Positions 3,353 to 39,444 of a stretch of DNA of 64,000 bases are shown one piece after another. The stretch is taken from positions 3,436 to 67,435 of the forward strand of contig DUQX01000004.1 in the NCBI GenBank assembly GCA_012837615.1. The letters run 5' to 3'. The stretch is from Bacillota bacterium (GTDB lineage: Bacteria > Bacillota > Dethiobacteria > DTU022 > UBA8154). How positions within the stretch are numbered: the first letter of the stretch is position 1; each line of letters begins with the position of its first letter. The notes under the pieces are model-generated. The model was not told where the DNA came from, did no database searches, and was given only the letters and a program-made list of their open reading frames with translations. The position numbers and the translations under genes are program-made.

Positions 3353-4612
3353 ATGGAATGGTGGCAAATAATAGAGGTAAAACCCCAAATAGTAGACATA
3401 ATATTGGCTGCAGAAGAAAAAACTGCTGAAATACATAAGGAATTTCTTGCTACTTGTTTGTTCAATCAAGCCCGGGTTTTGAAGGCCTTTCAGAAACTAA
3501 AAATTTCCGATGAGTGTTTTAACTCAAATGAGGGGTATGGTTATAACGATTATGGAAGGGAAAAGCTAGAGGAGCTTTTTGCCGAGATCTTTCAGGGTGA
3601 AGAGGCTATTGTTCGACCCCATTTGGTCTCCGGAACACATACGATCTTTTCCTGTTTTAGAGGTTTATTGCGGCCCGGAGACCGTTTAATCTCCATAACA
3701 GGAAAACCCTATGATACCCTTTTCCATGCGATAGAAACAGAAAGGGGAGGAGGGAGCTTACAGGAATGGGGCATCTCCTTTGACAGTATTGAACAGGATG
3801 ATTTTATTCTTCTAGAGGATAAGAATAAATTAAAAAAATTGCTGAGTGAACCTACCAGTGTGATATATATTCAGCGCTCAAAAGGATATAATCCTTATCG
3901 TTCATCATTAACTGTTGAAAATATCGGTAAGTTAATTAAAAAAGTTCGCCGCTTTAATCCGGAAGTAACAATATTTGTTGATAACTGTTATGGGGAATTT
4001 GTGGAAAGACAGGAGCCGCTAGAAATTGGAGCTGATGTAATCGCAGGTTCATTAATAAAAAATGTGGGAGGAGGGCTGGCTCCTACAGGAGGTTATATAG
4101 TAGGAAATAAAAAATGTATCGAAAAAATTAGTAATGCCATATCGGCTCCCGGATTGGGAAAAGAACTGGGAGCGTTTATTTATAACAAAAGGCTCTTTTT
4201 CCAGGGATTATTTATGGCACCGCACCTCACCGCCGAAGCTTTAAAGGGGGCATCTCTATTTGCCGCTGCCTTTGAAAGCTTAGGCTATAAAGTAGATCCG
4301 CGTTATGATCAAACTAGAGGGGATATAATCCAATCAATATCCCTAAAAAATAAAGAGGAACTGCAAAAAATCTGCCGAGCCGTCCAAAGCGCTTCTCCTA
4401 TTAACGCCCATATAACACCTGTGCCCGGCAGAACTGCAGGTTACGATGATCTGATATACATGGCAGCCGGGACCTTTGTGCAGGGCGCTTCGGGAGAATT
4501 TAGCGCCGATGCGCCTCTGCGTGAGCCTTATACTGTTTATATCCAGGGAGGGCTTACCTATGAGCATGTTCTTTTGGGACTGGCCGCTGTTCTTCAATCT
4601 ATCCTGGATTAA
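3353..4612 (+). CDS. Aluminium-resistance / YnbB-family PLP-dependent (Cys/Met-metabolism-like) protein
   Basis: A 419-aa protein recognised at family level (EGYGYNDYGREKLEELFAEIF..., VSGTHTI), in the typical position after hfq in Clostridia. Confidence 0.7.
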   Translation: MEWWQIIEVKPQIVDIILAAEEKTAEIHKEFLATCLFNQARVLKAFQKLKISDECFNSNEGYGYNDYGREKLEELFAEIFQGEEAIVRPHLVSGTHTIFSCFRGLLRPGDRLISITGKPYDTLFHAIETERGGGSLQEWGISFDSIEQDDFILLEDKNKLKKLLSEPTSVIYIQRSKGYNPYRSSLTVENIGKLIKKVRRFNPEVTIFVDNCYGEFVERQEPLEIGADVIAGSLIKNVGGGLAPTGGYIVGNKKCIEKISNAISAPGLGKELGAFIYNKRLFFQGLFMAPHLTAEALKGASLFAAAFESLGYKVDPRYDQTRGDIIQSISLKNKEELQKICRAVQSASPINAHITPVPGRTAGYDDLIYMAAGTFVQGASGEFSADAPLREPYTVYIQGGLTYEHVLLGLAAVLQSILD

Positions 4613-4613
4613 T

Positions 4614-5231
4614 TTAATCAATAACCCTCACCAAGCCGATTACCTTTCCCAATAAACGAACATCACTGGCAATTAGCGGTTCATAATCAGGGTTTTCCGG
4701 CTGAAGCCGCACGTAGCCAGTTTCGAGATAAAACCGTTTTACTGTTGCCTCATCACCAAGCAGAGCTACCACAATTTCACCGTTCTCCGCGGAGGGTTGC
4801 TGTCTGACGACCACAAGGTCTCCATGGAGAATACCCGCATTTTTCATGCTATCTCCTTTTACCCGCAGCAAAAAAACAGAGTCGCCTTTTACAATCTCCT
4901 CCGGAAGCGCTAGATAATTTTCGATGTTCTCTTCAGCAAATACCGGCGCTCCTGCTGTCACCTGACCTACCAGGGGAATAAGCCGCATTTTCTTTTTTGT
5001 GTTTTCAGGATGATCCAATATTTCAATTGCACGGGGTTTAGCCGGATCCCTTTTAATATAACCCTTTTTCTCCAGTGCCTTTAAATGTGCATGAACTGTA
5101 GAACTTGAACTAAGGCCCATTTTATTACATATTTCGCGAACTGAGGGGGGATAGTTTTTATGCATAACTTCTTCGGTTATATAATTCAGTATTTCCTTTT
5201 GTCGTAAAGTCAATTTTTTCAATGGAATCAT
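4614..5231 (-). CDS. lexA: LexA SOS repressor
   Basis: An N-terminal wHTH (PPSVREICNKMGLSSSSTVHAHLKALEKKGYI), the AG cleavage site (VTAGAP), and a Ser/Lys peptidase domain (GDSM ... KRF). Confidence 0.95.
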   Translation of the reverse strand: MIPLKKLTLRQKEILNYITEEVMHKNYPPSVREICNKMGLSSSSTVHAHLKALEKKGYIKRDPAKPRAIEILDHPENTKKKMRLIPLVGQVTAGAPVFAEENIENYLALPEEIVKGDSVFLLRVKGDSMKNAGILHGDLVVVRQQPSAENGEIVVALLGDEATVKRFYLETGYVRLQPENPDYEPLIASDVRLLGKVIGLVRVID

Positions 5232-5332: not shown

Positions 5333-6871
5333 TTATTTATTATTATTGTTGTAAGCAACCATATTAATCAGCTTATTAATAGCATCAAGGTAAGCTTTAA
5401 CACTAGCCTCTATTATATCCGTGCTGACTCCCCTGCCTATAATATTCTTATCTTCATGGTTAATTTTAATGGATACTTCGCCCAGGGCATCAACCCCACG
5501 AGTGACAGCTCTCAAGTTATAATTCTCCAAGCGTATATTTATTTGGGTTATTTTATCAATTGCTTTGTATGCAGCATCGATTGGCCCGGCACCGCTGCTT
5601 ATTTCCTCAAGTTTTTCCTCTCCTTTACGCAGTCGCACTACCGCTGCAGGTACAGTTTTTGTGCCGCTGATTGTTTGCAAATAATCCAATTCGTAGGTTG
5701 GTTCCGCAAATGATACATCAATAAGCAACGCTTCCAGATCTTCTTTATAGACTTCTTTCTTTTTGTCACTCAACTCTATAAACCGTTCGTAAAGCCTTTT
5801 AAATTCCTCATCGTTTAGGTTGTAACCCATGCTTTCCAATTGGTGGCGTACAGCATGCCGCCCCGATCGTGCGGTCAACACCATTTGTGCTGCCTGGCCC
5901 CCTATTAGTTCGGCATTAATTATTTCATAAGTACGCTTATCCTTAATAATTCCGTCCTGGTGTATCCCCGAAGAATGAGTAAAGGCATTCGTGCCAATAA
6001 CAGCTTTATTTATCGGTATGGGTATCCCGCTTAGTTTACTGACAGTACGACTTGTGCGATATATCTCCTGCAAGTTGATACCTGTCTCAAAGGGATAGTG
6101 ATCCTCTCTTATTTTCATAGCAACAACAATTTCCTCCAGCGAGGCGTTTCCAGCCCTCTCACCGATACCATTAATATTGCATTCTATCTGCCTGGCGCCA
6201 TTTTCCACGGCGGTAAGTGAATTAATAACGGCTAGGCCTAGATCATTATGGCAATGAACGCTGATTGTAGCTTTATTGATATTAGGAACTCTAGTATTAA
6301 TGAGATGAATTAAACGACCAAATTCCTGGGGAACAGCATATCCCACGGTGTCCGGAATATTTACAACAGTAGCACCGGCATCTATTACAGCCTCAACAAC
6401 ACGTAAAATATAATCTTCACGGGCTCTAGTAGCATCCTCCAGCGAATATTCAACATCTTGTGTTAAACTTTTGGCATACCTGACAGCCTGAACAGCCTCC
6501 TGCAGGCAAGTATCAGGATCCTTGCGCAACTTTTTCTGCATATGGATATCAGAAGCTGCAAGGAAAACATGAAGACGCGGTTTTTCGGAATCTTTTATTG
6601 AATCCCAAGCACAATCAATATCCTCTTTTACAGCCCGCGCAAGAGCCGCTATAACAGGGCCCTTAACTTTTCTTGATATTTGCTGCACAGCGCGAAAATC
6701 CCCCGGAGAAGAAATGGGAAAACCTGCTTCAATAACATCAACATTTAAACGGGCAAGCTGAAGTGCAATTTTTAATTTTTCACTGGCGTTTAGTTTGGCT
6801 CCAGGCGTTTGTTCCCCATCTCTTAAAGTACTGTCAAAAATCATTATTCTTTCTTTCTTCATTCCATCCAC
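5333..6871 (-). CDS. leuA: 2-isopropylmalate synthase (start may be the ATG at 6862)
   Basis: The FDSTLRDGEQ HMGL-like TIM barrel, HCHNDLGLA, the C-terminal LeuA dimerisation/regulatory domain, and a preceding T-box leader. Confidence 0.85.
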   Translation of the reverse strand: MDGMKKERIMIFDSTLRDGEQTPGAKLNASEKLKIALQLARLNVDVIEAGFPISSPGDFRAVQQISRKVKGPVIAALARAVKEDIDCAWDSIKDSEKPRLHVFLAASDIHMQKKLRKDPDTCLQEAVQAVRYAKSLTQDVEYSLEDATRAREDYILRVVEAVIDAGATVVNIPDTVGYAVPQEFGRLIHLINTRVPNINKATISVHCHNDLGLAVINSLTAVENGARQIECNINGIGERAGNASLEEIVVAMKIREDHYPFETGINLQEIYRTSRTVSKLSGIPIPINKAVIGTNAFTHSSGIHQDGIIKDKRTYEIINAELIGGQAAQMVLTARSGRHAVRHQLESMGYNLNDEEFKRLYERFIELSDKKKEVYKEDLEALLIDVSFAEPTYELDYLQTISGTKTVPAAVVRLRKGEEKLEEISSGAGPIDAAYKAIDKITQINIRLENYNLRAVTRGVDALGEVSIKINHEDKNIIGRGVSTDIIEASVKAYLDAINKLINMVAYNNNNK

Positions 6872-6893
6872 CTTCTCTCTTAATTAATCCACT

Positions 6894-6930
6894 AAAAAAC
6901 CTTTCGTCAAAATAACATAGAGACGAAAGG
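6894..6930 (-). terminator. Intrinsic terminator of the T-box leader
   Basis: A 9-bp stem, CCTTTCGTC / GACGAAAGG, followed by TTTTTT on the minus strand. The 5' arm overlaps the antiterminator/T-box region. Confidence 0.8.
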
Positions 6931-7150
6931 TTTTCCCTCGCGGTACCACTCTACTTGACAGCACAGATCTACTGTCCTCTTTAAGTGTTCTTTTTTTTAA
7001 CGGTAAAGAACCGTCCTGACCTATTCTCACTACCAAGTGATTTCAGCAGGCTCCTCACAGGGGAGTTTCAGAAAAAAGAAGGGTTGCACTTTCACCTTTC
7101 AGCAACTCTCTGCACACTTCTTAATTTTCCTACTGGTCCTGTTCATCGTA
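6894..7150 (-). promoter_or_regulatory. T-box leader RNA (tRNA-sensing riboswitch), probable Leu specifier
   Basis: On the minus strand I see GATGA (K-turn), AGTA, the AGAGAG bulge, a specifier region GAAACUCC (CUC at 7063-7065), and the T-box AGAGTGGTACCGCGAG (core at 6939-6949). A terminator follows. Confidence 0.85.
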
Positions 7151-7261
7151 TTTGATTTATACCAATTTAATTTACATCAATTTAAAATATAGCATATACA
7201 TTTTTTTTATTCCTGTCAACCCCATCAGAGAAATTTAAATTAAAACACAGCAAAATTAATA

Positions 7262-7289
7262 ACGTCCGATAATATATATTATGTAAACT
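7262..7289 (+). other. dif: dif site (XerC/XerD = CodV/RipX chromosome-dimer resolution site)
   Basis: ACGTCCGATAA-TATATA-TTATGTAAACT matches 25/28 of the B. subtilis dif ACTTCCTAGAATATATATTATGTAAACT (from memory). It also shares the ATAAT-N-TATATTATGT-AA core with E. coli dif, and the gene-strand bias switches here. Confidence 0.8.
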
Positions 7290-7736
7290 AAAAGAAGGGG
7301 CACAATAAATACCGCTTAAATAGCGGAATCCGACCAAACCGAATAGTTTACGTTTTGTATATCACTTGCCCGGCCCTGTATAAATATGCTTATGTTGCTG
7401 TACGGTTTTTGAGTAATATTATAAACCGTTCCCATGTATAATTGATTTTTTTGCTCCGGGCCTTCGCTAAGGGTTAATACTCAAGCATCAAGCAATTTCA
7501 TTCAAAACCATCATGGGATCATTTTAAAATTTCCGTCTATATTTTATACTGCCTGTGATTATAGTTGCTACATTATCAATGAATAAACCAAAAATATTGA
7601 TGCTTTGCTTACAATAAATATTACTATAAGGTTCAGGTGCTCATATGTTACTAAATTCTTTCTGCATCTGAAACAAAAAAGCAAGCAGCATAAAAACTAC
7701 TAAAGCACCCCTCTCCCCCTATTTCCTTTTTCCACG

Positions 7737-7749
7737 ATATTATGTAAAC
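7737..7749 (+). repeat. Truncated dif copy (3 nt of central region + 10 nt of XerD-side arm), direct repeat of 7276-7288
   Basis: An exact 13-nt repeat, ATATTATGTAAAC. The XerC-arm position is unrelated (TTCCTTTTTCC). Confidence 0.6.
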
Positions 7750-7788
7750 AAGTATCTTTTACGTAAATATATACTTGATAACCATTTT

Positions 7789-9162
7789 TTACTGTACTGC
7801 AGCCTGCAACACTTTTGCCGCGATCGGCCCGGCAACACTGGCTCCCGAGCCGCCGTTTTCAATAACCACAACAAAAGCAAGGGGATAATCATCCCTATCC
7901 AAAAAGCCGGCGAACCAAGCATGGGGCTTCTTATCCCCGCCCACCTGAGCAGTACCTGACTTGGCACAGAGCTCAAGGCCTCTGAAATTATCCTCACCGT
8001 ACTCACTAATAGTATTGTTCCTCATCATCCTTTTCAGCCTTTGGGCTGTTTCAGACGAAAGCACCCTTTTTTTTTCAACGGCGGAAAAGTTTATCAATGA
8101 GAATATTCCCTTATCCTTCACTATCCTCGGTGTTATACGGACGCCATCATTTGCGATGGCACCCATATACGCCATAAAATTCAAAGGATTGGCCGTATTG
8201 GTATATTGTCCTATTCCGGACCAGGCCAGATCTGCCCCCACTGCATCCGATGCATCGAATCTACCCACCGCGGTTCTAATACCATCCACCTCCAAACTTG
8301 TATTAAATCCTGCTGCATGGGCATATTCCTGCAGTATTCCGGCTCCAAGATCAGAGGCGATCTGTGCAAAGGCCGCATTACACGAACAGGCAAGTGCCCT
8401 CTCCAGGTTAACCGAACCGTGGACCGTATGGCAGGTTACCACATCCCCCCCTACCTGCAGCCCCCCTTCACAATGGTAAAGGATATGTTCGATGTTATCA
8501 AAATGCTCAATCGCCGCAGCAGCGGTCACCAATTTAAACACCGAGCCGGGCGTATAAGTCGCGGACAGAAAACGGTTAATATATACTCCCTGATATTTTT
8601 CAGGTTCCGCCTCTATGTCGGGGGGGGTCTCCGGATCAAAAGATGGCGAACTTACCATACAAAGAATCTCTCCTGTCCGATAGTTATACACCCCCACCGC
8701 TCCCTTGCGACCGCTCAGTTCTCCATACGCAACAGAGCACAAATCGGCATCCAGGTTCAGGGTCAGATCTCTGCCTGCCCCCGCCTGCTTATGAAAACTA
8801 TAAACCCCGTTTATCATGTCCCAGCCGCTCAATCGTTCCCTGAAGGCCACCCGGGCCCCGGTCATCACATTGCCATACAAGTCCCCCGTGGCATGCATAA
8901 CGGCGGTGCGCACTGCCCTGTCAGTATGGAATTTTACCTCCCCATCCTTTACCTGACAAAGAATACTGCCCCTGCGGTCATAAATATTTCCACATGACAC
9001 TAATTTTCCTTCTGCATAAAGATGCTGGTTTGTGGGATAATGCGCCCAGGCAGAAGCATTGCTTACATACTTTGCCGTGAAGATAAAAAGGCCAAACACA
9101 AACAGCAGAGCAAAAAAAAGCAGTACAGAGGCACGGCCCAGCAACAGTTTCAAATTATTCAC
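7789..9162 (-). CDS. Class B penicillin-binding protein (PbpA/PBP2-like transpeptidase)
   Basis: An N-terminal TM anchor, plus SxxK (S207-VFK), SxN (S260-CN) and KSG (K401-SGT) motifs at canonical spacing. Confidence 0.9.
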   Translation of the reverse strand: MNNLKLLLGRASVLLFFALLFVFGLFIFTAKYVSNASAWAHYPTNQHLYAEGKLVSCGNIYDRRGSILCQVKDGEVKFHTDRAVRTAVMHATGDLYGNVMTGARVAFRERLSGWDMINGVYSFHKQAGAGRDLTLNLDADLCSVAYGELSGRKGAVGVYNYRTGEILCMVSSPSFDPETPPDIEAEPEKYQGVYINRFLSATYTPGSVFKLVTAAAAIEHFDNIEHILYHCEGGLQVGGDVVTCHTVHGSVNLERALACSCNAAFAQIASDLGAGILQEYAHAAGFNTSLEVDGIRTAVGRFDASDAVGADLAWSGIGQYTNTANPLNFMAYMGAIANDGVRITPRIVKDKGIFSLINFSAVEKKRVLSSETAQRLKRMMRNNTISEYGEDNFRGLELCAKSGTAQVGGDKKPHAWFAGFLDRDDYPLAFVVVIENGGSGASVAGPIAAKVLQAAVQ

Positions 9163-9167
9163 CTCAT

Positions 9168-10976
9168 TCAGAAACGATTATCGGCAGATTTTATCAGCGC
9201 CAGCAGCCCCCAGGAGGCCACCATAGAGGAGCCCCCCCTGGAAACGAAGGGCACGGTTATCCCCGTCAGAGGAATTATATCTACGGAGCCCAAAACATTC
9301 AAGGCTATCTGGATCAGGAAGATGGAAGCTGCTCCGCAAGCCGTAATGGCATAAAAAGAGGAGCGGCAATCCTTTGTCAGAAACACGGCATAAAAGGCTA
9401 GAAACACAGGAACTAAAATCGCAGTTAGGGCTACCAGCAAACCCCATTCCTCTGCGAGCAATCCAAAAATCAGGTCGGTATCAGCCGCTGCAACCTGGGC
9501 CAAATATCCTTCTCCGCCGCCTACTCCCAAAAGGCCACCACTGGCAGCGGCAATCATGGTACGGGTCTGCTGGTAGCCAGAGGTGCTGGCATGCTCCCAT
9601 ACCTTTCCCCATACAGCAAAACGGGAGGCAATATACGGCAAAAAAGACACCGCCGCTACAGTTCCCAATGCAGCTCCTGTTACAGCCAGAGCAATGGTCC
9701 GCATATCCCCGGAACGCATGAAAGCGATGACAATAAAGGTGCCGAAAAAAACCACCACCGTGCCAAAATCCCTCATCAGGACCAGAGCCCCGATGCACAC
9801 CGCTGAAAAGCCGATAAACGCGCTCATATCTCGGGTTGTAAGGAGCTTATCCAGAGTTGCTGTACCGACCAGTACAAAAGCAATCTTGACAAACTCAGAC
9901 GGTTGGAAAGTAACAAAACCCAGGTCAAGCCAGTTCTTTGCCCCGAAATGCGTTTCCCCCATAGCCAGATTCAATATCAGAAGCACCAAAGCAACTGCTG
10001 CCAGGAAATGCTTAAGTCTCTCCGCCCGCTCCAGGTCGTGAAGTATCACTAGCAGAACAGTATACGCCGCAAACCCTAGGAGAATTGCTGTCAGCTGCGT
10101 TAAAAGCGAATCCGAAGCCGCCGAGGCAGTAACGGAAAGGCTTAAACCGCAGAGAAAATAGCAGAGTAGCTCAAGTTCCAGGTGTTTCCAGCCGCACCAA
10201 CTCATGATACTGTAATGTACACATTCGGCAAGAATGAAAAGGAAAAAGCTCAGCGGCACCACTGGGTTGGCTTCTACTCCCATGGAAAAGAAAAGCTGAA
10301 GCCCCCCCAAGACTTGAAAAAGCAGAATCAAAAAGAAGGTCTGCCTGGAGCCGGACCGTCTCATGGCCAATGGAGCTCTTACAGCATTACTATTCTGAGA
10401 AATTTCGTGGAAGTAACCCGCTCCTACGTCCTGCCGCAAGGGCGCTTCGAAACTATTCTGCTGCTGCGGCAACCCACCTTTCTCTCTATTTGCCAGAACA
10501 AGCTCCATCTTCACCCCCCCGATGGAGATGATATCTCCGTTCCTGAGAATCTCCGTCGCTTCTATCCTCCTCCCGTTCACCTCTACCCCATTCTTTGATT
10601 TCAGATCAGCAATAGACCATTTCCCGTTGCGAAATGTCAGCACAGCGTGACTTCGGGATACAAAGGGCAGGTCGATAACGATATCCGCTAATCTGCTTCT
10701 TCCAATGGAGTTTTCCCAGTGTTGCAAAGGGACGCTTGTGCCGTCCTGCATATGCAGATGTCCCCAAACAATCTTTCTTCCCCTATTTTGCAAAAGAGGG
10801 AGAATGCATCTCAAAAAAATGGTAATAGCCAAAACCGGAAAAATCCATCTCACTAAAAAAGTATATAAATCCGTTACCAGCCCGAAATGGGTAAAAAAGC
10901 TCCCTGCGCTGCATGAAAGCTCTTCAAATAGTATCCAGATCCTTTTCAATTTTTCCAAAAAAACAACACTGCTCAT
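9168..10976 (-). CDS. FHA-domain-fused SEDS protein (FtsW/RodA/SpoVE-family peptidoglycan polymerase)
   Basis: An N-terminal TM hairpin and an FHA domain at aa ~68-160 (nt 10497-10775; GRSRLADIVIDLPFVSRSHAVL...NGVEVNGRRI). The polytopic SEDS core ends ...PLTGITVPFVSRGGSSM. A 5-nt gap separates it from the PBP gene. Confidence 0.85.
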   Translation of the reverse strand: MSSVVFLEKLKRIWILFEELSCSAGSFFTHFGLVTDLYTFLVRWIFPVLAITIFLRCILPLLQNRGRKIVWGHLHMQDGTSVPLQHWENSIGRSRLADIVIDLPFVSRSHAVLTFRNGKWSIADLKSKNGVEVNGRRIEATEILRNGDIISIGGVKMELVLANREKGGLPQQQNSFEAPLRQDVGAGYFHEISQNSNAVRAPLAMRRSGSRQTFFLILLFQVLGGLQLFFSMGVEANPVVPLSFFLFILAECVHYSIMSWCGWKHLELELLCYFLCGLSLSVTASAASDSLLTQLTAILLGFAAYTVLLVILHDLERAERLKHFLAAVALVLLILNLAMGETHFGAKNWLDLGFVTFQPSEFVKIAFVLVGTATLDKLLTTRDMSAFIGFSAVCIGALVLMRDFGTVVVFFGTFIVIAFMRSGDMRTIALAVTGAALGTVAAVSFLPYIASRFAVWGKVWEHASTSGYQQTRTMIAAASGGLLGVGGGEGYLAQVAAADTDLIFGLLAEEWGLLVALTAILVPVFLAFYAVFLTKDCRSSFYAITACGAASIFLIQIALNVLGSVDIIPLTGITVPFVSRGGSSMVASWGLLALIKSADNRF

Positions 10977-11020
10977 GCTATCTTCCCTCTATAGAAGTAC
11001 TGTCTCTGCTAGCATATCTC

Positions 11021-12229
11021 TTACACATACTTTTTTTCTATTTGGTTTTTACCATTGAATTTTGCCTTATATAAAAGCCTGTCAACTTCCCTTAACAGTT
11101 CAGTTAAATTATTACTTCCCAATTCAGTAACACCGCCGCTAATCGTTACTTTTAAGTTGTTCCGCCACTTTAATTCCCAAATTTTACCTCGAATTCGCTC
11201 CACAATAGAGTATGCATCTTTCAAACTTGTATCAGGAAGCACAATTAAAAATTCCTCACCTCCAAAGCGTCCTGCTATATCATTCTGCCTCAAATTATTG
11301 TTTATTGATTCACCTACCCTCTTGAGCACGTAATCCCCATATAAATGTCCATATGTATCGTTGATCATCTTGAAGTTGTCAATATCAATCAAAGCTACGG
11401 CAAGCTTTCCTTTGTTCTCTTGAGATATTTCAATCTCATCCTCCAGGCGAGCTGTAATATACATTTTATTATAAGTACCTGTCAAAACATCGGTAATAGA
11501 TAATTTTTCCAGCTTTTGTTTTTCTTCATATAGTAATTTGTTTAAACCTTCTACCTTTTCCTTCGATTTTTTAAGTTCCGCATTATTCTTTTCCAATATT
11601 TTGTTCTTGGCCTCAATCTCCTTTTTTTGTTCCTCCAGCTTAGAAAAGTACTGGTCTGACCGTTGACGTTCCTTGAAATAACTATCTACAAAAACAGCAA
11701 AAAATACCGCATTGGAAACCAGGCAAACAAAAAACCCAAAGGATGAATCTAAACACCTTGTCAGTTGCGAACCATACCCCACAACAAAATTCGGCGCTTG
11801 ATATTCAATAGCTATAAGGGTAGCGGCAAGCACTGCAAAAAATACAAAAACAATACCTCTTTTGAATCCGTCAAGCAATATCGCGATGATCCCTGCATTG
11901 ATAATCATATAGTATGGGATGCTGCCATAAGACCCTCCATTAATAATCCACAAAGCAGGGAATAGAATAAAACTCAACATTAATACGGTTATCAAAGCCG
12001 GGAGCTCGTACTTTTTACCAATAATAGAAAACAGGTATAGCACTATTGATATAACACCGCACCCAATAGTCAAAACTACGGTAACTACACCTAATCCAAG
12101 AATATAGTTTATTATACTCGCAGAAAATGACATGCAAATTCCTACCAGGGCTATTACATTAAATAGCCGATGCCTGAAGGAAAATTCATTTTCATCACCG
12201 ATAAGGGTTGAGATTATTTTAGCCTTCAT
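11021..12229 (-). CDS. Membrane-anchored diguanylate cyclase (GGDEF domain, GGEEF active site, RxxD I-site)
   Basis: About six N-terminal TM helices and a coiled coil. The GGDEF domain carries RQND-IAGRF-GGEEF. Confidence 0.9.
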   Translation of the reverse strand: MKAKIISTLIGDENEFSFRHRLFNVIALVGICMSFSASIINYILGLGVVTVVLTIGCGVISIVLYLFSIIGKKYELPALITVLMLSFILFPALWIINGGSYGSIPYYMIINAGIIAILLDGFKRGIVFVFFAVLAATLIAIEYQAPNFVVGYGSQLTRCLDSSFGFFVCLVSNAVFFAVFVDSYFKERQRSDQYFSKLEEQKKEIEAKNKILEKNNAELKKSKEKVEGLNKLLYEEKQKLEKLSITDVLTGTYNKMYITARLEDEIEISQENKGKLAVALIDIDNFKMINDTYGHLYGDYVLKRVGESINNNLRQNDIAGRFGGEEFLIVLPDTSLKDAYSIVERIRGKIWELKWRNNLKVTISGGVTELGSNNLTELLREVDRLLYKAKFNGKNQIEKKYV

Positions 12230-12421
12230 AAATTTTCTCCTGGTTATCTTGCAATTTTATTACTACTTCTGAAGACTGGGAATTAGGATACAATCTATAC
12301 AAAAAGAATGCAAGGTTTATTTGAGGATCGAGATATCGTTAGTTTTATCTCAAATGCCATTAAACTGTTGTTGTTGTTAATTCTGTAAATATGCTACCGG
12401 AGGATGGGCTGATGATTGTTT

Positions 12422-12616
12422 CAATTGTGGTAACTGCTCAGCTATACGCAGGATTGTCACCCTGAGCGTTAGCAAAGAATCCTTTGCCTTTAGAGGAGCG
12501 AAGGATCTTCACTCTTCATTACGTTCAGAGTAACAAGTCACTTTCATATGTGACTTTTCAGACACCTGCCGTTCCCTACGCCCTGTTTATGTTTTGCTCT
12601 GAGTAGTTACCAATTG
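12422..12616. repeat. Nested inverted-repeat element (MITE/REP-like)
   Basis: The outer IR is CAATTGTGGTAACTGCTCAG (12422-12441) paired with CTGAGTAGTTACCAATTG (12599-12616). The inner imperfect palindrome is TTGTCACCCTGAGCG...GCGAAGGATC...CGTTCAGAGTAACAAG (12453-12537). There is also a hairpin at 12535-12556. Confidence 0.5.
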
Positions 12617-12690
12617 CGAATGTATTCCAAAACATGCTTCATACCCTTTAGAAAGCCATAATCTTGTCAATAAACCCATATAGCTTGCCA

Positions 12691-13272
12691 TTAAAGTTCA
12701 CCCTTTAAGCCCAGCTCTTCCGCTGCCCTTTGCATTCCCCGGATGGTTTCCTCAATAACTTCAGTTAAATCCATCCCCAGGAGTTTTGCACCTTCTTCAA
12801 TAATCCCCCGATCAACTCCGGCCGCAAAACTCTTCTGTTTCATTTTCTTTTTTACCGACTTGGCGGTCAAGTCCATAATACTCCGGCTCGGACGCATGAG
12901 AACCGTAGCCACAATTAGACCCGTTAACTCGTCAATGGTATAGAGAACCTTCTCCATTCTTTCTTGCGGTTCTACGTCGGAACAGATCTTCCAGCCGTGG
13001 CTCTGTATTGCCCTAATGTAATCTTCCGGCCAGCCCTCATCGGTAAGAATCTCCCGCACTTTGCTGCAATGTTCTTCGGGATATTTTTCATAATCCAAAT
13101 CATGCGTAAGCCCGATTACACGCCATTTTTCCAGATCTTCTTCGCCAAATTTTTCAGCAAAATGCACCATAACCGCTTCTACCGCCAGGGCATGCTTGAG
13201 CAATGCATCGTTTTTGTTGTACTTCTTTAATAACGCCAGCGCCTCTTCTCTGGTAGGTTTTTTCTTTTCCAT
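12691..13272 (-). CDS. HD-domain hydrolase (COG2316-like HD superfamily protein)
   Basis: The HD motif (LTHDLDY) and a conserved 193-aa family architecture. Confidence 0.8.
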   Translation of the reverse strand: MEKKKPTREEALALLKKYNKNDALLKHALAVEAVMVHFAEKFGEEDLEKWRVIGLTHDLDYEKYPEEHCSKVREILTDEGWPEDYIRAIQSHGWKICSDVEPQERMEKVLYTIDELTGLIVATVLMRPSRSIMDLTAKSVKKKMKQKSFAAGVDRGIIEEGAKLLGMDLTEVIEETIRGMQRAAEELGLKGEL

Positions 13273-13545
13273 ATTGCCACCCTTTCTTTTTTTTCTATCG
13301 ATTTACACCAATATTTCATTAAGCAAAAAATCCGCATAATCTATCAATACCATCTTTACAATACGATATTCATTTTATTGCTCCCTTTACTTTATTCATA
13401 GCAACCGCAAGCCTCCATTCTCCAACCTTCCTCGGCAAGCTATTCCCGAGATTGTAATTTATTAAATTATAGCTCTTATCTTTTCATCTAGCAAGCCGGC
13501 AAAAGTCAACCGAAGAAGCAGGAGTAGAATTCTTATATTTAATTC

Positions 13546-13576
13546 TTGACATTAACGTAACGTAAAGGTTTATACT
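13546..13576 (+). promoter_or_regulatory. MerR-type promoter: TTGACA - 19-bp spacer - TATACT
   Basis: A consensus -35 at 13546-13551 and a -10 at 13571-13576 with a suboptimal 19-bp spacer typical of MerR-family-controlled promoters. It lies 24 nt upstream of the merR-family ATG. Confidence 0.55.
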
Positions 13577-13599
13577 ATAAAGAGCAGGGAGGAAAAGTT

Positions 13600-14364
13600 A
13601 TGGAATATACAGTGCAAAAACTTGCCAGATTAGCTGGTGTCAGCCCGAGAACACTTAGATATTATGATGAAATTGGACTTCTTAAGCCGGCTAGAATCAA
13701 TTCATCAGGTTATCGTATTTATGGTGGAAAAGAAGTTGATAGATTGCAACAAATTTTATTTTATCGCGAGCTTGGTGTGAACTTGGATGAGATTAGAATT
13801 ATCCTGGACTCTACATCTTTTAATAAAGCCAGGGCTCTGCGAAAACATCGCTTTAGACTCCTGGCAAAAAAGAAACAGATTGAATTATTAATTGCTAATG
13901 TCGAAAAAACAATAGCAATGACAGAAGGGAGAATAACAATGAGCGATAAGGAAAAATTTGAGGGTTTTAAACAAAAGATAATCGATGACAATGAGCTGAA
14001 GTACGGCAAAGAAATCAGGGAAAAATATGGAGATGATGCCGTTGACCGTTCAAATCAAAAGATAAAGCAAATGACCGAAAAACAGTATACAGCTGTTGAA
14101 AAGTTGTCAAATGAGGTAAATAATGCAATAAAGATAGCCTTTGAAAACGGGGATCCTTCTGCTGAATTAGCACAGAAAGCATGCGAACTGCATAGGCAGT
14201 GGTTACTGTATTTTTGGGATGAATACTCAAAAGAGGCACATATGGCACTTGTTCAGGGATATGTAGATGATGAGAGATTTACAGCATATTATGATAAAAT
14301 TGCACCTGGGTGTACAGCGTTTCTACGTGATGCAATGAGAATTTATACCGGTATTAAAGCATAA
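13600..14364 (+). CDS. MerR-family transcriptional regulator with TipAS/Mta-type C-terminal sensor domain
   Basis: An N-terminal MerR HTH (YTVQKLARLAGVSPRTLRYYDEIGLL) and a C-terminal TipAS-like domain (YVDDERFTAYYDKIAPGCTAFLRDAM). Confidence 0.9.
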   Translation: MEYTVQKLARLAGVSPRTLRYYDEIGLLKPARINSSGYRIYGGKEVDRLQQILFYRELGVNLDEIRIILDSTSFNKARALRKHRFRLLAKKKQIELLIANVEKTIAMTEGRITMSDKEKFEGFKQKIIDDNELKYGKEIREKYGDDAVDRSNQKIKQMTEKQYTAVEKLSNEVNNAIKIAFENGDPSAELAQKACELHRQWLLYFWDEYSKEAHMALVQGYVDDERFTAYYDKIAPGCTAFLRDAMRIYTGIKA

Positions 14365-14382
14365 GGCAAGCTGGTATCCATT

Positions 14383-14411
14383 AAAAAAAACAGAAATCCA
14401 AAAGATTTCTG
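14383..14411 (-). terminator. Intrinsic terminator (reads as hairpin + T8 on minus strand)
   Basis: An 8-bp stem, CAGAAATC / GATTTCTG, flanked by A8 on the plus strand, downstream of the 14456-14764 gene. Confidence 0.65.
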
Positions 14412-14455
14412 CTATGATTAACCCTTATTACATTATTAATATTAATATAATGGGA

Positions 14456-14764
14456 TTAATGAGAACCGGGCCTTTTTCTCACTGGCTTAACCTTATGGTA
14501 ATTGCTATTTGAATTGCCTCCAAGGTTTTCAATAGTATTTTTTGCTCCTGAGAATAATCCAATTGCAGAAAGGCCAACTACTATACCCAAAAAAATTGCT
14601 TTTGGGGGGTCATCGGGAGCCAGATAATAAAAACCTGCTAGAATACCCAGGATAATCGCTACAATTGGGGAAAACTTTTTGGGTATACCCACTCTTTTTA
14701 ATAACTCTACCATTGCCATTACCACAGGCACCAGAGCTATACCATAAACATTAATCGCCTCCAT
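14456..14764 (-). CDS. Small 3-TM membrane protein, holin-like (uncertain)
   Basis: A 102-aa protein with three predicted TM helices and a basic C-terminal tail (KVKPVRKRPGSH). It loosely resembles phage holin families, and there is no lysin nearby. Confidence 0.4.
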   Translation of the reverse strand: MEAINVYGIALVPVVMAMVELLKRVGIPKKFSPIVAIILGILAGFYYLAPDDPPKAIFLGIVVGLSAIGLFSGAKNTIENLGGNSNSNYHKVKPVRKRPGSH

Positions 14765-15260: not shown

Positions 15261-16403
15261 TTATACTGTTGATCTGTTTAGGATCTCTTCAGGTAATTGG
15301 TTATCAGCAAATACCGTGTCTATTACTATGTTCCTTTTTTCTATAAGGTCAATCTCATACGGTGTTAAAGGTTCAAAATCCTCTTTGGAGCATAGAACGC
15401 GCACCCTGGGCCTCTTGGGGAACCCAACCGTATTCTTAACAACTATTCCTACTTCTCCACTGCTCAAGCCCAGAAAAGTACCTATAGGATAAGCAGCGAT
15501 ATGCTGGATAAAATTATGCAGTACTTTCAGATCAAATTGCTCGCCGGAAGATTCCAGAATCTCAATAGCTTTATGAGGCGGGAAAGCCAACCGGTAAGGA
15601 CGATCAGCTACCAGGGCATCATAAACATCTGCAACGGCACTTATCCTGGAAAATAAATGAATCTGTTCAGACCTAAGGCCTTCCGGGTACCCCTCACCGT
15701 TCATGCGTTCATGATGCTGGTAAATAACCATGGCAGAGGAGCCGGGAATTAGATCTTGCGCTTTTACCATCTCATATCCAAAACCGGGATGTTTTTTTAT
15801 TTCAAGATATTCATCCGCAGAGAGTTTACCCTTTTTGTTTAAAATGCTGGAGGGTATCTTTACTTTTCCAAGATCATGGAGCAAAGATCCAAGGCCGACT
15901 TTTGTAAGCTGGGAACGCGACAAGCCCAGGGATATTCCCAACGTCAGCGCCAACACGGCGACATTAACAGAATGGGCAAAGGTGTAATTATCAGCAGTTC
16001 TAATATCGGACAAATTTACTATCAAATTATTATTGTTTAACAACTGATCGATAATGTCCTGAAGCACATTGCAAATGTTTTGCCTTTTAAATAGCAACTT
16101 AGGAACCGGTTTTTCCGGCTGTCTTTTTATATCAAACATTATATCCCTAACTATTTCAGTGGTTTTATGCCTTGTTTCATCCAGTATTACATCTTCAATA
16201 TCAATATCGGGTATAATATTATCGAAGATATAAACCGAACTAATATTGAGTTTTCTTAAACTATGTATATATTCTCTTTTTAGTTCCACACCGGTATTAA
16301 GAAGTAAAAAGCCCATCTTATCGTAAATTGCTCTTGCCAGCTTCATTCCTGGCTGAAGAGAAGAGATCGGCACTTTGCGCATTTGACCATCTCCTAAGAA
16401 CAC
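15261..16403 (-). CDS. HD-GYP domain c-di-GMP phosphodiesterase
   Basis: HDLGKVKIP (HD) and HHERMNGEGYPEGL (GYP) motifs. Confidence 0.9.
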   Translation of the reverse strand: MFLGDGQMRKVPISSLQPGMKLARAIYDKMGFLLLNTGVELKREYIHSLRKLNISSVYIFDNIIPDIDIEDVILDETRHKTTEIVRDIMFDIKRQPEKPVPKLLFKRQNICNVLQDIIDQLLNNNNLIVNLSDIRTADNYTFAHSVNVAVLALTLGISLGLSRSQLTKVGLGSLLHDLGKVKIPSSILNKKGKLSADEYLEIKKHPGFGYEMVKAQDLIPGSSAMVIYQHHERMNGEGYPEGLRSEQIHLFSRISAVADVYDALVADRPYRLAFPPHKAIEILESSGEQFDLKVLHNFIQHIAAYPIGTFLGLSSGEVGIVVKNTVGFPKRPRVRVLCSKEDFEPLTPYEIDLIEKRNIVIDTVFADNQLPEEILNRSTV

Positions 16404-16527
16404 GCTTTTTCCGATAGAAATAATTCAAATTAAATTATAACATAAATCGATAATATTCTTAAAGAGCAACAGGCAGGAAAAAGGATTAACAATCATTTAA
16501 TCTCCCATTCCCGGGCATAATAGAAAA

Positions 16528-17709
16528 ATGAACAAGATAAACACTGAAAAAGACAATTTAAAGGTCGGTATATTTACCGACAGCTATTACCCTTATATAA
16601 GCGGAGTTGTCCGCTCTATTGAACTTCTAAAAAAGGAATTGGAAAGCCGTGGGCATGGAACATTTATCTTCGCTCCAAATTACCCAACGGCATGGCAATT
16701 TCAAGAAAAAAATGTTTTTCGTTTTTTTTCTATACCCGCACCAACTCAAAAAAATTTCTTTCTACCCGTTCCCTTTTCTCCGCGATTACCTTTTCTAGTC
16801 CAAAATTTGAAACTGGATGTTATCCACGTCCATTCTCCCTTTTTATTGGGCTCATTGGGTGCAGCAACAGCCAAGCGATTTAAACTGCCGTTAATATTTA
16901 CCTTCCACACTCTCTATCACTTCTATGTTCATTACACACCATTTGGAAGGAATATTTCCGCCGCAATAATAAAAAAATGGAATAAAAAGTTTTGCAATAG
17001 GTGCGACCTTATCATTGCTCCTTCATTATTTGTAAAAAAGCTTATTACGGAATACGGCGTTTCAAAACCTGTTGACGTTATTCCTACAGGCATAGATGAT
17101 TCTTATTACTTAATAAACAATGATAACAAAGAGTGGATTAAAAAACATTTTCATTTAGATGAGAAAGATAAGATATTACTGCATGTTGGCCGGTTGAGCA
17201 AAGAAAAGAATATCGATTACTTAATAGAAGCTATGGGAGAGATACAAAAAACCATATCCCATGTAAAACTAATCATTGTTGGAACAGGGCCTGAGGAAAC
17301 AAACCTGAGAAGACTTGCTCATCAAAAAAACCTCGAATCATCTGTTTTTTTCAGCGGCCAGATCAACCACAGCGAACTGCTAAAGTGTTATGCCGGGGCA
17401 GATATTTTTACTTTCGCTTCCCGAAGCGAAACCCAGGGTCTTGTCGTTGGGGAAGCAAAAGCTGCAGGACTTCCTGTGGTGTGCTCTTTCTCCCCTTGCT
17501 TATCAGAAACAATCTTTCACGGCAAAGACGGGTTTCTTGTCCATACCTTACAGGATTTTGTTGAAAAGATAAAATACCTGCTTGAAAATGAACCATTGAG
17601 AAAAAATATGGGAAAAAGGGCGAAAATCAATGCTCTCAGGTACTCCTCTAATCTTCTGGCAAATAAAATGCTGCAAAGATATCAAAAAGCTATCCAAGAT
17701 AAAAATTAG
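16528..17709 (+). CDS. Glycosyltransferase family 4 (GT-B, group 1)
   Basis: GT4 N-terminal domain (FTDSYYPYISGV) and the C-terminal E-x7-E region (SRSETQGLVVGEAKAAGLPVV). Confidence 0.85.
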   Translation: MNKINTEKDNLKVGIFTDSYYPYISGVVRSIELLKKELESRGHGTFIFAPNYPTAWQFQEKNVFRFFSIPAPTQKNFFLPVPFSPRLPFLVQNLKLDVIHVHSPFLLGSLGAATAKRFKLPLIFTFHTLYHFYVHYTPFGRNISAAIIKKWNKKFCNRCDLIIAPSLFVKKLITEYGVSKPVDVIPTGIDDSYYLINNDNKEWIKKHFHLDEKDKILLHVGRLSKEKNIDYLIEAMGEIQKTISHVKLIIVGTGPEETNLRRLAHQKNLESSVFFSGQINHSELLKCYAGADIFTFASRSETQGLVVGEAKAAGLPVVCSFSPCLSETIFHGKDGFLVHTLQDFVEKIKYLLENEPLRKNMGKRAKINALRYSSNLLANKMLQRYQKAIQDKN

Positions 17710-37077: not shown

Positions 37078-39444
37078 TTACTCCCCATTGTTAACCGGTT
37101 TAAATTTTTTTTCCTTTAAAAGAAGAGCAGCCTGCTCCATATTCATTAATACTTTTCGGGGTTTACTGCCCTCATATTTACCGACTACCCCTAAACGTTC
37201 CAGATCATCAATAAGCCTGGCCGCCCTTGTATAGCCGACCCTGAACCTCCTTTGAATGAGAGATATGGAGGCGTGCCCGGTCTGTATGATTAGTTCTACT
37301 GCTTCGGGCAATATAGGATCAAATATTTCTTCCTCCTCGGCTTTCTCCTCAGGCACTTCTTCTGTAAAAAAAGACTGCTGATAAAGGGGGCTTTCCTGTT
37401 GTCTGATAAACTCCACAAGTTTATATATATCCCTTTCACTTAAAAATGCTCCCTGAACACGTAAAGGTTTATGAGCGCCAATAGGATAATAGAGCATATC
37501 GCCCCTGCCCAAAAGCTTTTCTGCCCCTCCCATATCCAATATTGTTCTGGAATCGATCTGTGAAGACACTGCAAAAGCAATTCGCGATGTAATGTTCGCT
37601 TTAATCAATCCGGTGATAATATCGACTGATGGCCGTTGGGTTGCAATTACAAGGTGTATCCCTGCAGCTCTGGACATCTGGGATAACCTGACAATTGAAT
37701 CCTCAACTTCAGCGGGAGCAACCATCATCAAATCCGCCAGTTCATCTATTACAACAACAATATACGGTAGGAGATCCTCATCTCCGGCAGAATTATGATC
37801 ATTTCCAATACTGCTCTTAATTAGTTCATTATAACGGCTTATGTCACGAACACCCTGCCGGGCAAAAAGGTCATATCTCCTCTCCATCTCCTTTACCATA
37901 CTCCGCAAAGCCATAGAAGCTTTTTTCGGTTCGGTGATTACCGGCGAGATCAAATGGGGAATTCCGTTATATATACTTAGTTCAACCATCTTGGGATCGA
38001 CTAGCAACATTTTTACTTCCCAGGGAGTAGCTTTAAAAAGAATACTGCAAATAAGGCCATTAATGCATACACTTTTTCCCGACCCGGTCGAACCGGCAAT
38101 TAATAGATGGGGCATTTTCAAAAGGTCAGCAAAAACAGCAGAACCGGCGATATCTTTTCCCAGGCCAATAGTCAGAGGGGAAGCGGAGTTTTGGAAAAAA
38201 GGATCTTCCAATACTTCTCTTAAATATACTAGGGAAACTATTTTATTGGGAACCTCAATTCCTATAGCTGCTTTTCCGGGTATTGGTGCTTCAATCCGTA
38301 CATCAGGAGCTGCAAGATTTAGAGCGAGGTCATCGCTTAGGCTTAAAATCTTACTGACCTTTACCCCGGTTTCAGGTTGTATCTCAAAACGTGTAACCGC
38401 CGGGCCAGCCTGGATCTCTTTAATTTTTACATTTACACCAAAGCTTTCAAAGGTATTCTCTAAAGATCGCGCCCTTTCCTGAATAACTTTCTGCTGTTGG
38501 TTATCGCGCAGTTTATTTACTTTAACCAAAAGGCTCAAGGGTGGGATCTGGTAGTCTAGCAGTGCCTTATTACCTTCGGTGAGATTATCTGGGGAAACGG
38601 TTTCTTGGATACTTTGCGGATCATTTTCAAATAATTCATCTGCGTTCGAGATTATTGTTTGCTGTACGGCAATATTACTGTAGTCATTATATGTTTTTTC
38701 CGAATATCCTTCTATTTTTTCTTCTTTCTCTTCAATTGAAGGGATCATTTCATAGTCTTCGTATTTCTTAACCGGATACTTTTCTTCCGAAAGGTTAGAG
38801 CTTTTTTCCCTCTGGGGGAAAACACCGATAATACTTTTACCTGAACGGGCACAAAAAGACAGGATGATTTTGCTGCACCTGAAGATGCCGGTAATAATTT
38901 CAATTAAAGAACTGTTTGTAATTAGCAGCAAGGCAAGGACACCAAAAGCGCTAATTACTATATAACTGCCTATATCCTTAAATAAGAATAATAGGATAAC
39001 GGTTAAGAGAGCTCCCAGCAGACCCCCGCCCTGCCGCTGCAAACCGAGATGAATAATCGAGATATAAAAATCACCTTTGGAAAGAACATCCAGCTCATCT
39101 AATGATAATGTTAAATGCAAAGATATCGTCAGGAGTAAAAAAAGAATAGCCAGTCCCAGAAAACGGTATTGAATATTTTCAATTTCCAACGGCCAGAGGC
39201 GGGTGAGCGCAAAAATAGCCAGTAAAAATGGCAATGCCAGAGCCGCATCCCCCAGTAGAGTCCTAAAGATATTATTCAGTATAATGCCAAAATACCCGGT
39301 TTGTGAAGTAAATTTTATCCCGGCAAACATGAAGGCCGCTAAGGCCGCCAATAAAACAGCAATAATCTGTCTATTGATAACTTCGTTCTTGAAAACCATC
39401 GCTTTTTTTAGATTTTTATTATTTTCCTTTTTTTTTGATGCCAT
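37078..39444 (-). CDS. ftsK: DNA translocase FtsK/SpoIIIE
   Basis: An N-terminal polytopic domain, a motor domain (GSTGSGKS, VVVIDELADLM), and a C-terminal gamma wHTH. Confidence 0.95.
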   Translation of the reverse strand: MASKKKENNKNLKKAMVFKNEVINRQIIAVLLAALAAFMFAGIKFTSQTGYFGIILNNIFRTLLGDAALALPFLLAIFALTRLWPLEIENIQYRFLGLAILFLLLTISLHLTLSLDELDVLSKGDFYISIIHLGLQRQGGGLLGALLTVILLFLFKDIGSYIVISAFGVLALLLITNSSLIEIITGIFRCSKIILSFCARSGKSIIGVFPQREKSSNLSEEKYPVKKYEDYEMIPSIEEKEEKIEGYSEKTYNDYSNIAVQQTIISNADELFENDPQSIQETVSPDNLTEGNKALLDYQIPPLSLLVKVNKLRDNQQQKVIQERARSLENTFESFGVNVKIKEIQAGPAVTRFEIQPETGVKVSKILSLSDDLALNLAAPDVRIEAPIPGKAAIGIEVPNKIVSLVYLREVLEDPFFQNSASPLTIGLGKDIAGSAVFADLLKMPHLLIAGSTGSGKSVCINGLICSILFKATPWEVKMLLVDPKMVELSIYNGIPHLISPVITEPKKASMALRSMVKEMERRYDLFARQGVRDISRYNELIKSSIGNDHNSAGDEDLLPYIVVVIDELADLMMVAPAEVEDSIVRLSQMSRAAGIHLVIATQRPSVDIITGLIKANITSRIAFAVSSQIDSRTILDMGGAEKLLGRGDMLYYPIGAHKPLRVQGAFLSERDIYKLVEFIRQQESPLYQQSFFTEEVPEEKAEEEEIFDPILPEAVELIIQTGHASISLIQRRFRVGYTRAARLIDDLERLGVVGKYEGSKPRKVLMNMEQAALLLKEKKFKPVNNGE

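Follow-up and report, generated by a model that had tools for sequence, protein, structure and literature searches.

A probable chromosomal dif site in the terminus region of a Dethiobacteria-class genome, with a truncated copy retaining the XerD arm nearby

Introduction

A 28-bp sequence in the spacer upstream of leuA in a draft genome of an uncultured Dethiobacteria-class Bacillota bacterium raises the question whether it is the chromosomal dif site of this organism and whether the DNA around it spans the replication terminus, both of which had been proposed in an initial annotation. Dif sites have reportedly been predicted by computation by Hendrickson and Lawrence in 2007 and by Carnoy and Roten in 2009, in surveys older than the Dethiobacteria metagenome-assembled genomes (MAGs). 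The experimentally defined dif of Bacillus subtilis is given in Kono et al. (2011; PMC3025954), and passages of PMC3025954 and PMC5357621 that refer to Sciochetti et al. (2001) describe this Bsdif as the site of CodV and RipX. The window analysed here is the whole stretch of 64,000 nucleotides, corresponding to positions 3436-67435 of an 80,082-bp contig (C123) of an assembly (G000) that is a draft of 151 contigs and 2.11 Mb, 89% complete.

Results

Sequence and anatomy of the site

The 28-mer ACGTCCGATAATATATATTATGTAAACT is present on the + strand at window positions 7262-7289 and, with up to 3 mismatches allowed, has no second match in the window; none of 100 shuffled sequences used as a control contained a match. 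Two 11-bp arms, showing partial dyad symmetry (inner ATAA/TTAT), are arranged about a 6-bp centre (Table 1). Alignment with the dif of B. subtilis gives 25 identities in 28 positions, and the three mismatches (positions 3, 7 and 9) all fall within the XerC/CodV arm, the centre and the XerD/RipX arm being identical. With the dif of Escherichia coli 19 of 28 positions are identical, and a core ATAAT-N-TATATTATGT-N-AA is common to both. The initial annotation had placed a 28-mer at this position, with a 25/28 match to B. subtilis dif and an ATAAT core in common with E. coli dif, and all of this is borne out by the window scan and the alignments; the B. subtilis sequence that it gave is the one printed in Kono et al. 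(2011; PMC3025954), from which the E. coli reference was taken as well. Single-strand folding at the site gave nothing beyond what was obtained with shuffled controls.

Table 1. Features at and around the site. Coordinates are window positions unless a contig (C) is named.
Feature	Position	Strand	Basis or remark
Terminus-type switch	4217..4614	.	GC-skew maximum and gene-strand switch
lexA	4614-5231	-	
leuA (2-isopropylmalate synthase)	5333..6871	-	Conserved left neighbour of dif across the family, 1.2-1.5 kb off
T-box leader of leuA	6916..7155	-	RF00230, 119.4 bits, E = 2e-27
Promoter-like site of the T-box/leuA transcript	7191..7219	-	TTGACA-17-TATGCT; consensus scan only; 43 bp from dif
dif site (very probable)	7262..7289	+	Sequence, uniqueness, identity with B. 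subtilis dif, single-copy conservation, position
XerC arm of dif	7262-7272	+	ACGTCCGATAA
6-nt centre of dif	7273-7278	+	TATATA
XerD arm of dif	7279-7289	+	TTATGTAAACT
Purine-rich tract abutting the XerD arm	7290..7302	+	AAAAGAAGGGGCA; conserved as aAaAagaaGgGG, family f1 only
Variable flank on the XerD-arm side	7290-14455		Not collinear among genomes
Terminator-like hairpin	7312..7326	-	Predicted; CCGCTATTTAAGCGG followed by a T-rich tail
28-nt frame of the half-site	7723-7750		461 bp downstream of dif, frame to frame
Truncated dif copy (half-site)	7737..7749	+	ATATTATGTAAAC; 3 nt of centre and 10 nt of XerD arm, no XerC arm; same orientation as dif
Class B PBP	7789-9162	-	First gene of the variable flank
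FHA-fused FtsW/RodA (SEDS)	9168-10976	-	Next after class B PBP
Small conserved gene	14456-14764		Distance from dif varies greatly among genomes
FtsK/SpoIIIE DNA translocase	37078..39444	-	Gamma (KOPS-reading) domain, PF09397, 97.8 bits; about 30 kb from dif
XerD	C126:6938-7804		TIGR02225, 399 bits (cut-off 329.6); adjoins phosphopentomutase (deoB)
XerC	C34:9147-10022		TIGR02224, 338.5 bits (cut-off 335.15); directly after trmFO

Uniqueness and conservation

The whole assembly was scanned at up to 8 mismatches with the window 28-mer and with B. subtilis dif as queries, and one copy of the 28-mer was found in the 2.11 Mb (89% complete), the next best sequences having 7-8 mismatches; a single full-length copy is what the initial annotation had expected from such a search. 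Exactly one copy at up to 3 mismatches was detected in 31 of 41 genomes (the present one and 40 relatives), and a reversed control pattern had no match in the same 41 genomes. The relatives included a Dethiobacter sp. (G017, DYEO01000085), a Dethiobacteria bacterium (G003, JBMNEO010000005), a Dethiobacter alkaliphilus MAG (G024, JAENYV010000002) and a Bacillota bacterium from an anaerobic digester set (G001, JAAYOY010000146). When the copies were aligned, information content was near maximal over the 28 positions and about zero on either side, which defines a sharply bounded block that has remained nearly unchanged in at least 17 genera, the flanks being free to vary. Such blocks are typical of functional protein-binding sites in non-coding DNA. 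Exceptions to the decay at the flanks are a TA immediately upstream and, in the family of the window only, the purine-rich tract immediately downstream; among 23 genomes the purine fraction is 0.85 at +1 to +14 of dif versus 0.56 upstream, and the tract is not conserved in sister families. This tract looks like the leading-strand-skewed G-rich words of the genome (GGAGGGG and others), yet it is directed away from dif.

With either A or T permitted at position 23, the exact 28-mer was found in genomes of 92 species. This exact dif variant is common to Dethiobacteria, Alicyclobacillaceae, Aneurinibacillus, Desulfobacterota, Myxococcota and Binatia, and in the other phyla that carry it the neighbouring genes are unrelated. 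The shared variant makes a handy anchor for locating termini in MAGs.

Two further observations were made on related sequences. Three related viral contigs from IMG/VR (L147, L149 and L150) each contain GATTCCGATAATATATATTATGTTAACT and a further viral contig (L148) contains ACTTCCGATAATATATATTATGTAAACT; the contigs could derive from Xer-exploiting phages or could be prophage calls that take in a host dif. In three deltaproteobacterial or Syntrophobacteraceae MAGs with the identical 28-mer (L077, L084 and L118), an inverted copy of the XerD arm is located 39-44 bp downstream of dif, a geometry of dif plus half-site different from the one described below.

Immediate neighbourhood and left flank

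The site is located 390 bp upstream of the start codon of leuA (6871), in the spacer to which the initial annotation had assigned it, and 107 bp past the 5' end of the leuA T-box leader; a search of positions 6500-8200 against Rfam gave nothing besides this T-box. On the leuA side the promoter-like site of the leader has its -35 element at 7219. On the other side a terminator-like hairpin is predicted, which is conserved between this genome and G003 and would end - strand transcription ahead of dif. The site is thus flanked by this hairpin and by the leader promoter-like site, and if both elements act as predicted, dif would be situated in an untranscribed gap.

The left flank, which comprises a mutS-like gene, mutL, miaA, a methionine gamma-lyase-like (MGL-like) gene, lexA and leuA, is collinear across the family. 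In the window, the + strand to the left of 4.6 kb carries a partial ORF (1-183), mutL, miaA, hfq and the MGL-like gene, the five + strand genes of the initial annotation. To the right of the site that annotation had counted 52 of 56 genes on the - strand; the bias towards this strand holds and the exact count differs, as a crude ORF call placed 51 of 54 there.

A half-site and variable DNA on the XerD-arm side

Downstream of dif and separated from it by a spacer of 447 bp, a truncated copy is present in the same orientation (Table 1). The same arrangement of dif plus half-site was found in 10 of 23 site-carrying family genomes, belonging to at least 6 genera, with the half-site lying 281-599 bp downstream, oriented like dif, and in every case consisting of the XerD arm and 2-3 bases of the centre without a XerC arm. 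Searches at up to 1 mismatch in 174 kb of sequence downstream and 249 kb of sequence upstream of dif yielded 12 half-sites downstream in the same orientation, none downstream in the opposite orientation and none upstream in either orientation; further half-sites within 10 kb were not found. The spacers between dif and half-site can be aligned within genera only and are unrelated between genera. Metagenomes were scanned for alternative or deletion forms, and neither the species-specific left flank plus dif nor the half-site junction gave any match. The 12-mer TATTATGTWAAC of the XerD arm occurs exactly three times in the 2.1-Mb genome. Its third copy is located 194 bp upstream of xerD (C126:6715-6726, equal to L032:1278-1289) and was considered as an element of autoregulation; this idea was rejected, as the copy shares bases with the stop codon of the preceding ORF and has no counterpart at that place in 24 relatives, so that it is probably due to chance.

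The flank on the XerD-arm side is not collinear but strain- or genus-variable, with 0.2-16.9 kb before the first shared gene. The distance between dif and the small conserved gene is 0.2 kb in two genomes of other families, 6.2 kb in G017, 7.3 kb in the present genome, 15.7 kb in G011 and 16.9 kb in G003. Contigs of relatives end at 7, 481, 554, 822, 962, 1144 and 1955 bp past the XerD-arm side of dif, breaks of the kind that strain-variable DNA would produce. The strain-variable cargo genes start right after the half-site. In the window the first genes of this flank are those for a class B PBP and an FHA-fused FtsW/RodA protein, a pair with a G+C content of up to 0.50 versus about 0.40 for the genome. 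The pair is common to the genus at differing distances from dif; in the other genera that were examined it did not turn up close to dif. From the half-site to these shared genes there are 35 bp in the present genome, one gene in G002 and about 5.4 kb in G003, where the cargo comprises a lipoprotein-like ORF, two ABC-transporter genes, a gene shared with G002 and a membrane-protein ORF. The flank was also considered as a classical Xer-exploiting mobile element (IMEX). The segment between the two sites has no long ORF and the ordinary cargo lies outside it; no integrase, phage, plasmid, replication or transfer genes were found in the DNA adjoining dif, nor was a distal dif-like site seen where the variable region ends, and because of these last two results the IMEX reading was not adopted.

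Recombinases, translocase and polar motifs

Genes for XerD and XerC were identified on two other contigs, and their neighbours are the same as those of ripX (deoB) and codV (trmFO) in B. subtilis. XerD was present in 25 of 25 family genomes searched and a second Xer paralogue in almost all, and the recombinase genes are taken to be intact across the family genomes that were searched. The FtsK/SpoIIIE-type translocase with a gamma domain, encoded on the same contig as dif, is the only one found in the genome, in distinction to B. subtilis with SpoIIIE and SftA.

Polar motifs were counted on the + and - strands at each side of dif, pooled over six contigs (that of the window and those of five relatives). 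The ratios (+:-) were 45:17 on the left and 13:52 on the right for GGGNAGGG, 43:11 and 16:79 for GAAGAAG, and 11:5 and 3:12 for GAGAAGGG, the SRS of B. subtilis. Genome-wide, GAGAAGGG is weakly skewed (49:27), and unbiased rankings of 7- and 8-mers contained many G-rich words with 84-91% leading-strand bias and no outstanding KOPS/SRS-like octamer. Of the octamer polarity suggested in the initial annotation, the strand reversal of motifs at dif was therefore observed and a distinct octamer was not. The direction in which these G- and A-rich motifs flip is consistent with that predicted for convergence on dif and is inseparable from base skew and gene orientation.

Position relative to the replication terminus

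The cumulative GC skew reaches its maximum at contig position 7652 (window 4217), about 3.0 kb to the left of dif, the skew being +0.05 to +0.13 before this point and -0.13 to -0.30 after it. The genes switch strand between the convergent MGL-like gene (+, ending at 4612) and lexA, 2.7-3 kb from dif. As only 7.6 kb of positive-skew sequence lies to the left of the switch on this contig, stronger evidence was sought in the rest of the assembly, in relatives and in complete chromosomes; taken by itself the local skew evidence is thin, and the support is carried by the relatives.

Of the 53 contigs that are 12 kb or longer (1.65 Mb in all), only two show a change in the sign of the skew. On C131 it is of the origin type, from - to + at 15.2 kb and about 0.4 kb from dnaA (15599-16933), and as this sole origin-type switch (region C131:15200-16933) lies beside dnaA, oriC can be placed on C131. 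On C123 it is of the terminus type, from + to - at about 7.7-8 kb of the contig, with dif at 10.7 kb. In five relatives with 19-60 kb of sequence on both sides of the site, the skew maximum is 73, 1479, 2929, 3303 and 3372 bp away from it, the skew is positive on the left and negative on the right, and long ORFs switch strand accordingly. Five complete chromosomes carry the identical 28-mer at 166-191 degrees (0.46-0.53 of the circle) from dnaA, namely at 0.515 in Aneurinibacillus (CP116887), 0.530 in Alicyclobacillus fastidiosus (CP104067), 0.462 in Alicyclobacillus sp. ALC3 (CP066784), 0.477 in Tumebacillus avium (CP021434) and 0.525 in a Binatia MAG (OY282432); the present genome being a draft, the antipodal position is judged on these other, complete chromosomes.

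The offset of 3 kb between dif and the skew maximum amounts to about 0.14% of the genome. Predicted dif sites scatter about the skew shift-point within 1.39% of the genome length at +/-1 sigma (Kono et al., 2011; PMC3025954), and the offset, being well inside this spread, is in the usual range. As dif lies 2.7-3 kb from the point at which both leading-strand composition and gene orientation are reversed, the window contains the terminus region. The initial annotation had the window span the terminus, a view supported by the switch on this contig, the skew maxima of the relatives and the five complete chromosomes; of the skew and strand switch that it wanted checked at this coordinate, the only terminus-type switch of the assembly is indeed on this contig, and its extremum is about 3 kb to the left of the site rather than at it.

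Discussion

The 28-mer is very probably the chromosomal dif of this Dethiobacteria-class genome, a reading based on its observed sequence, uniqueness, conservation and position and on the presence of the Xer and FtsK/SpoIIIE genes. Reasoning from the homologous systems of B. subtilis and E. coli, one would expect Xer binding, an order of cleavage and a dependence on FtsK at the site. XerC (CodV-like) would bind the left arm and XerD (RipX-like) the right arm; when homologous recombination has produced a dimer of sister chromosomes, its two dif sites would meet at the septum as it closes, presumably paired by the FtsK/SpoIIIE-type translocase, which would read polar motifs directed to dif, and XerC and XerD would then exchange strands across TATATA, by which monomers would be restored. 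A dif at this place is an ordinary, expected feature and tells nothing new about Xer recombination; what is new is the dif of this lineage, which had not been pointed out before, and a 19-nt core of this sequence was found in no paper of the literature collection that was searched.

Two other identities for the site have to be weighed. It might be an attachment site or junction of an IMEX, or a plasmid-type site, with the working dif elsewhere in the genome: a truncated dif copy followed by strain-variable DNA lies 461 bp away, the dif core occurs in four viral contigs, and 11% of the genome is absent from the assembly. Against this, the assembled 2.1 Mb contain no other dif-like site, the full site is single-copy and has the same left neighbour (leuA/lexA) across the family, it coincides with the region of the skew maximum in five relatives and is opposite dnaA in five complete genomes, and the adjoining DNA is devoid of integrase, phage or plasmid genes, so that this explanation is very improbable. 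It is hardly credible that the site is a former dif that has decayed and lost its function, or an AT-rich near-palindrome kept for another reason, for example because it serves the leuA promoter as an upstream operator. Its AT-richness and its place 43 bp upstream of the promoter-like -35 element of the leuA leader would fit an operator, but the near-invariance of the 28 bp in at least 17 genera between two variable flanks, the occurrence of the same 28-mer in other phyla beside unrelated genes, the recombinase genes, taken to be intact in the family genomes searched (XerD in all, a second Xer paralogue in almost all), and the lack of single-strand folding above that of shuffled controls all speak against it.

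Accepting the site as dif, replication might still end outside the window, with forks fusing elsewhere and the strand switch being an effect of gene orientation. The skew maximum does fall at a pair of convergent genes, 2.7 kb away from the site, the contig includes just 7.6 kb of the left arm, and dif marks the terminus region and need not coincide with the termination point (Kono et al., 2011; PMC3025954). This possibility is nevertheless unlikely, given that the switch on this contig is the only one of the terminus type in 1.65 Mb and has a single counterpart of the origin type, at dnaA, and that in relatives the skew to the left of this locus is opposite to that on its right over about 20-60 kb each way. 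Dif marks the terminus region here, by which fork fusion at that very base is not proven. The pinned site fixes the terminus on a fragmented MAG, gives the replichore orientation of the 80-kb contig and marks the adjoining DNA as terminus-proximal and strain-variable.

The half-site may be a site for XerD only, of the XDS kind, or a boundary left or used by an insertion linked to Xer. We tentatively consider, as a possibility that is open to considerable doubt, that dif, a fast-evolving spacer of 250-570 bp and a direct XerD half-site form one conserved unit in the Dethiobacteraceae, in which the half-site would function in binding XerD. Within such a unit, the half-site could serve as an XDS-like SMC unloader or roadblock beside dif; alternatively, it could delimit a spot of Xer-linked gene capture, which, if true, would explain why the cargo of congeneric genomes differs exactly from the half-site onwards and why many assemblies break there. 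A conserved half-site for XerD only could be useful as a natural case for the study of XerD functions apart from XerC.

Several known systems can be compared with this locus. IMEX at dif include the CTX and TLC phages at the dif of Vibrio cholerae and the gonococcal genetic island between difA and a degenerate difB. The present locus is similar in that a full dif is accompanied by a degenerate direct copy and in that strain-variable DNA is found at the junction. It differs in that the DNA between the copies is 250-570 bp long and without long ORFs, in that the cargo is located beyond the half-site and not between the copies, and in that this cargo is ordinary (ABC transporter and others), with no phage, replication or transfer genes. 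The XDS of B. subtilis, in the passages of PMC11840125, PMC11894783 and PMC10945525 that refer to Karaboja et al. (2021), are dif-like sites of the terminus region that are bound by XerD and unload Smc-ScpAB. As far as these passages describe the XDS, the half-site is like them in keeping the XerD arm only, in its location in the terminus region and in its conservation across genera within non-conserved surroundings, and unlike them in being single and in always lying a short way from dif with the same orientation.

Predicted dif sites from Firmicutes and other phyla have been compiled (Kono et al., 2011; PMC3025954), such surveys predating the Dethiobacteria MAG lineage. With the dif of B. 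subtilis the present site has in common the length of 28 bp, the 11-6-11 anatomy, the TATATA centre, the XerD/RipX arm TTATGTAAACT and the occurrence as a single copy near the terminus. It differs from it in the XerC/CodV arm, in which the three substitutions give the form ...CCGATAA, a form that is also seen in an actinobacterial dif prediction (F. alni CACGCCGATAA).
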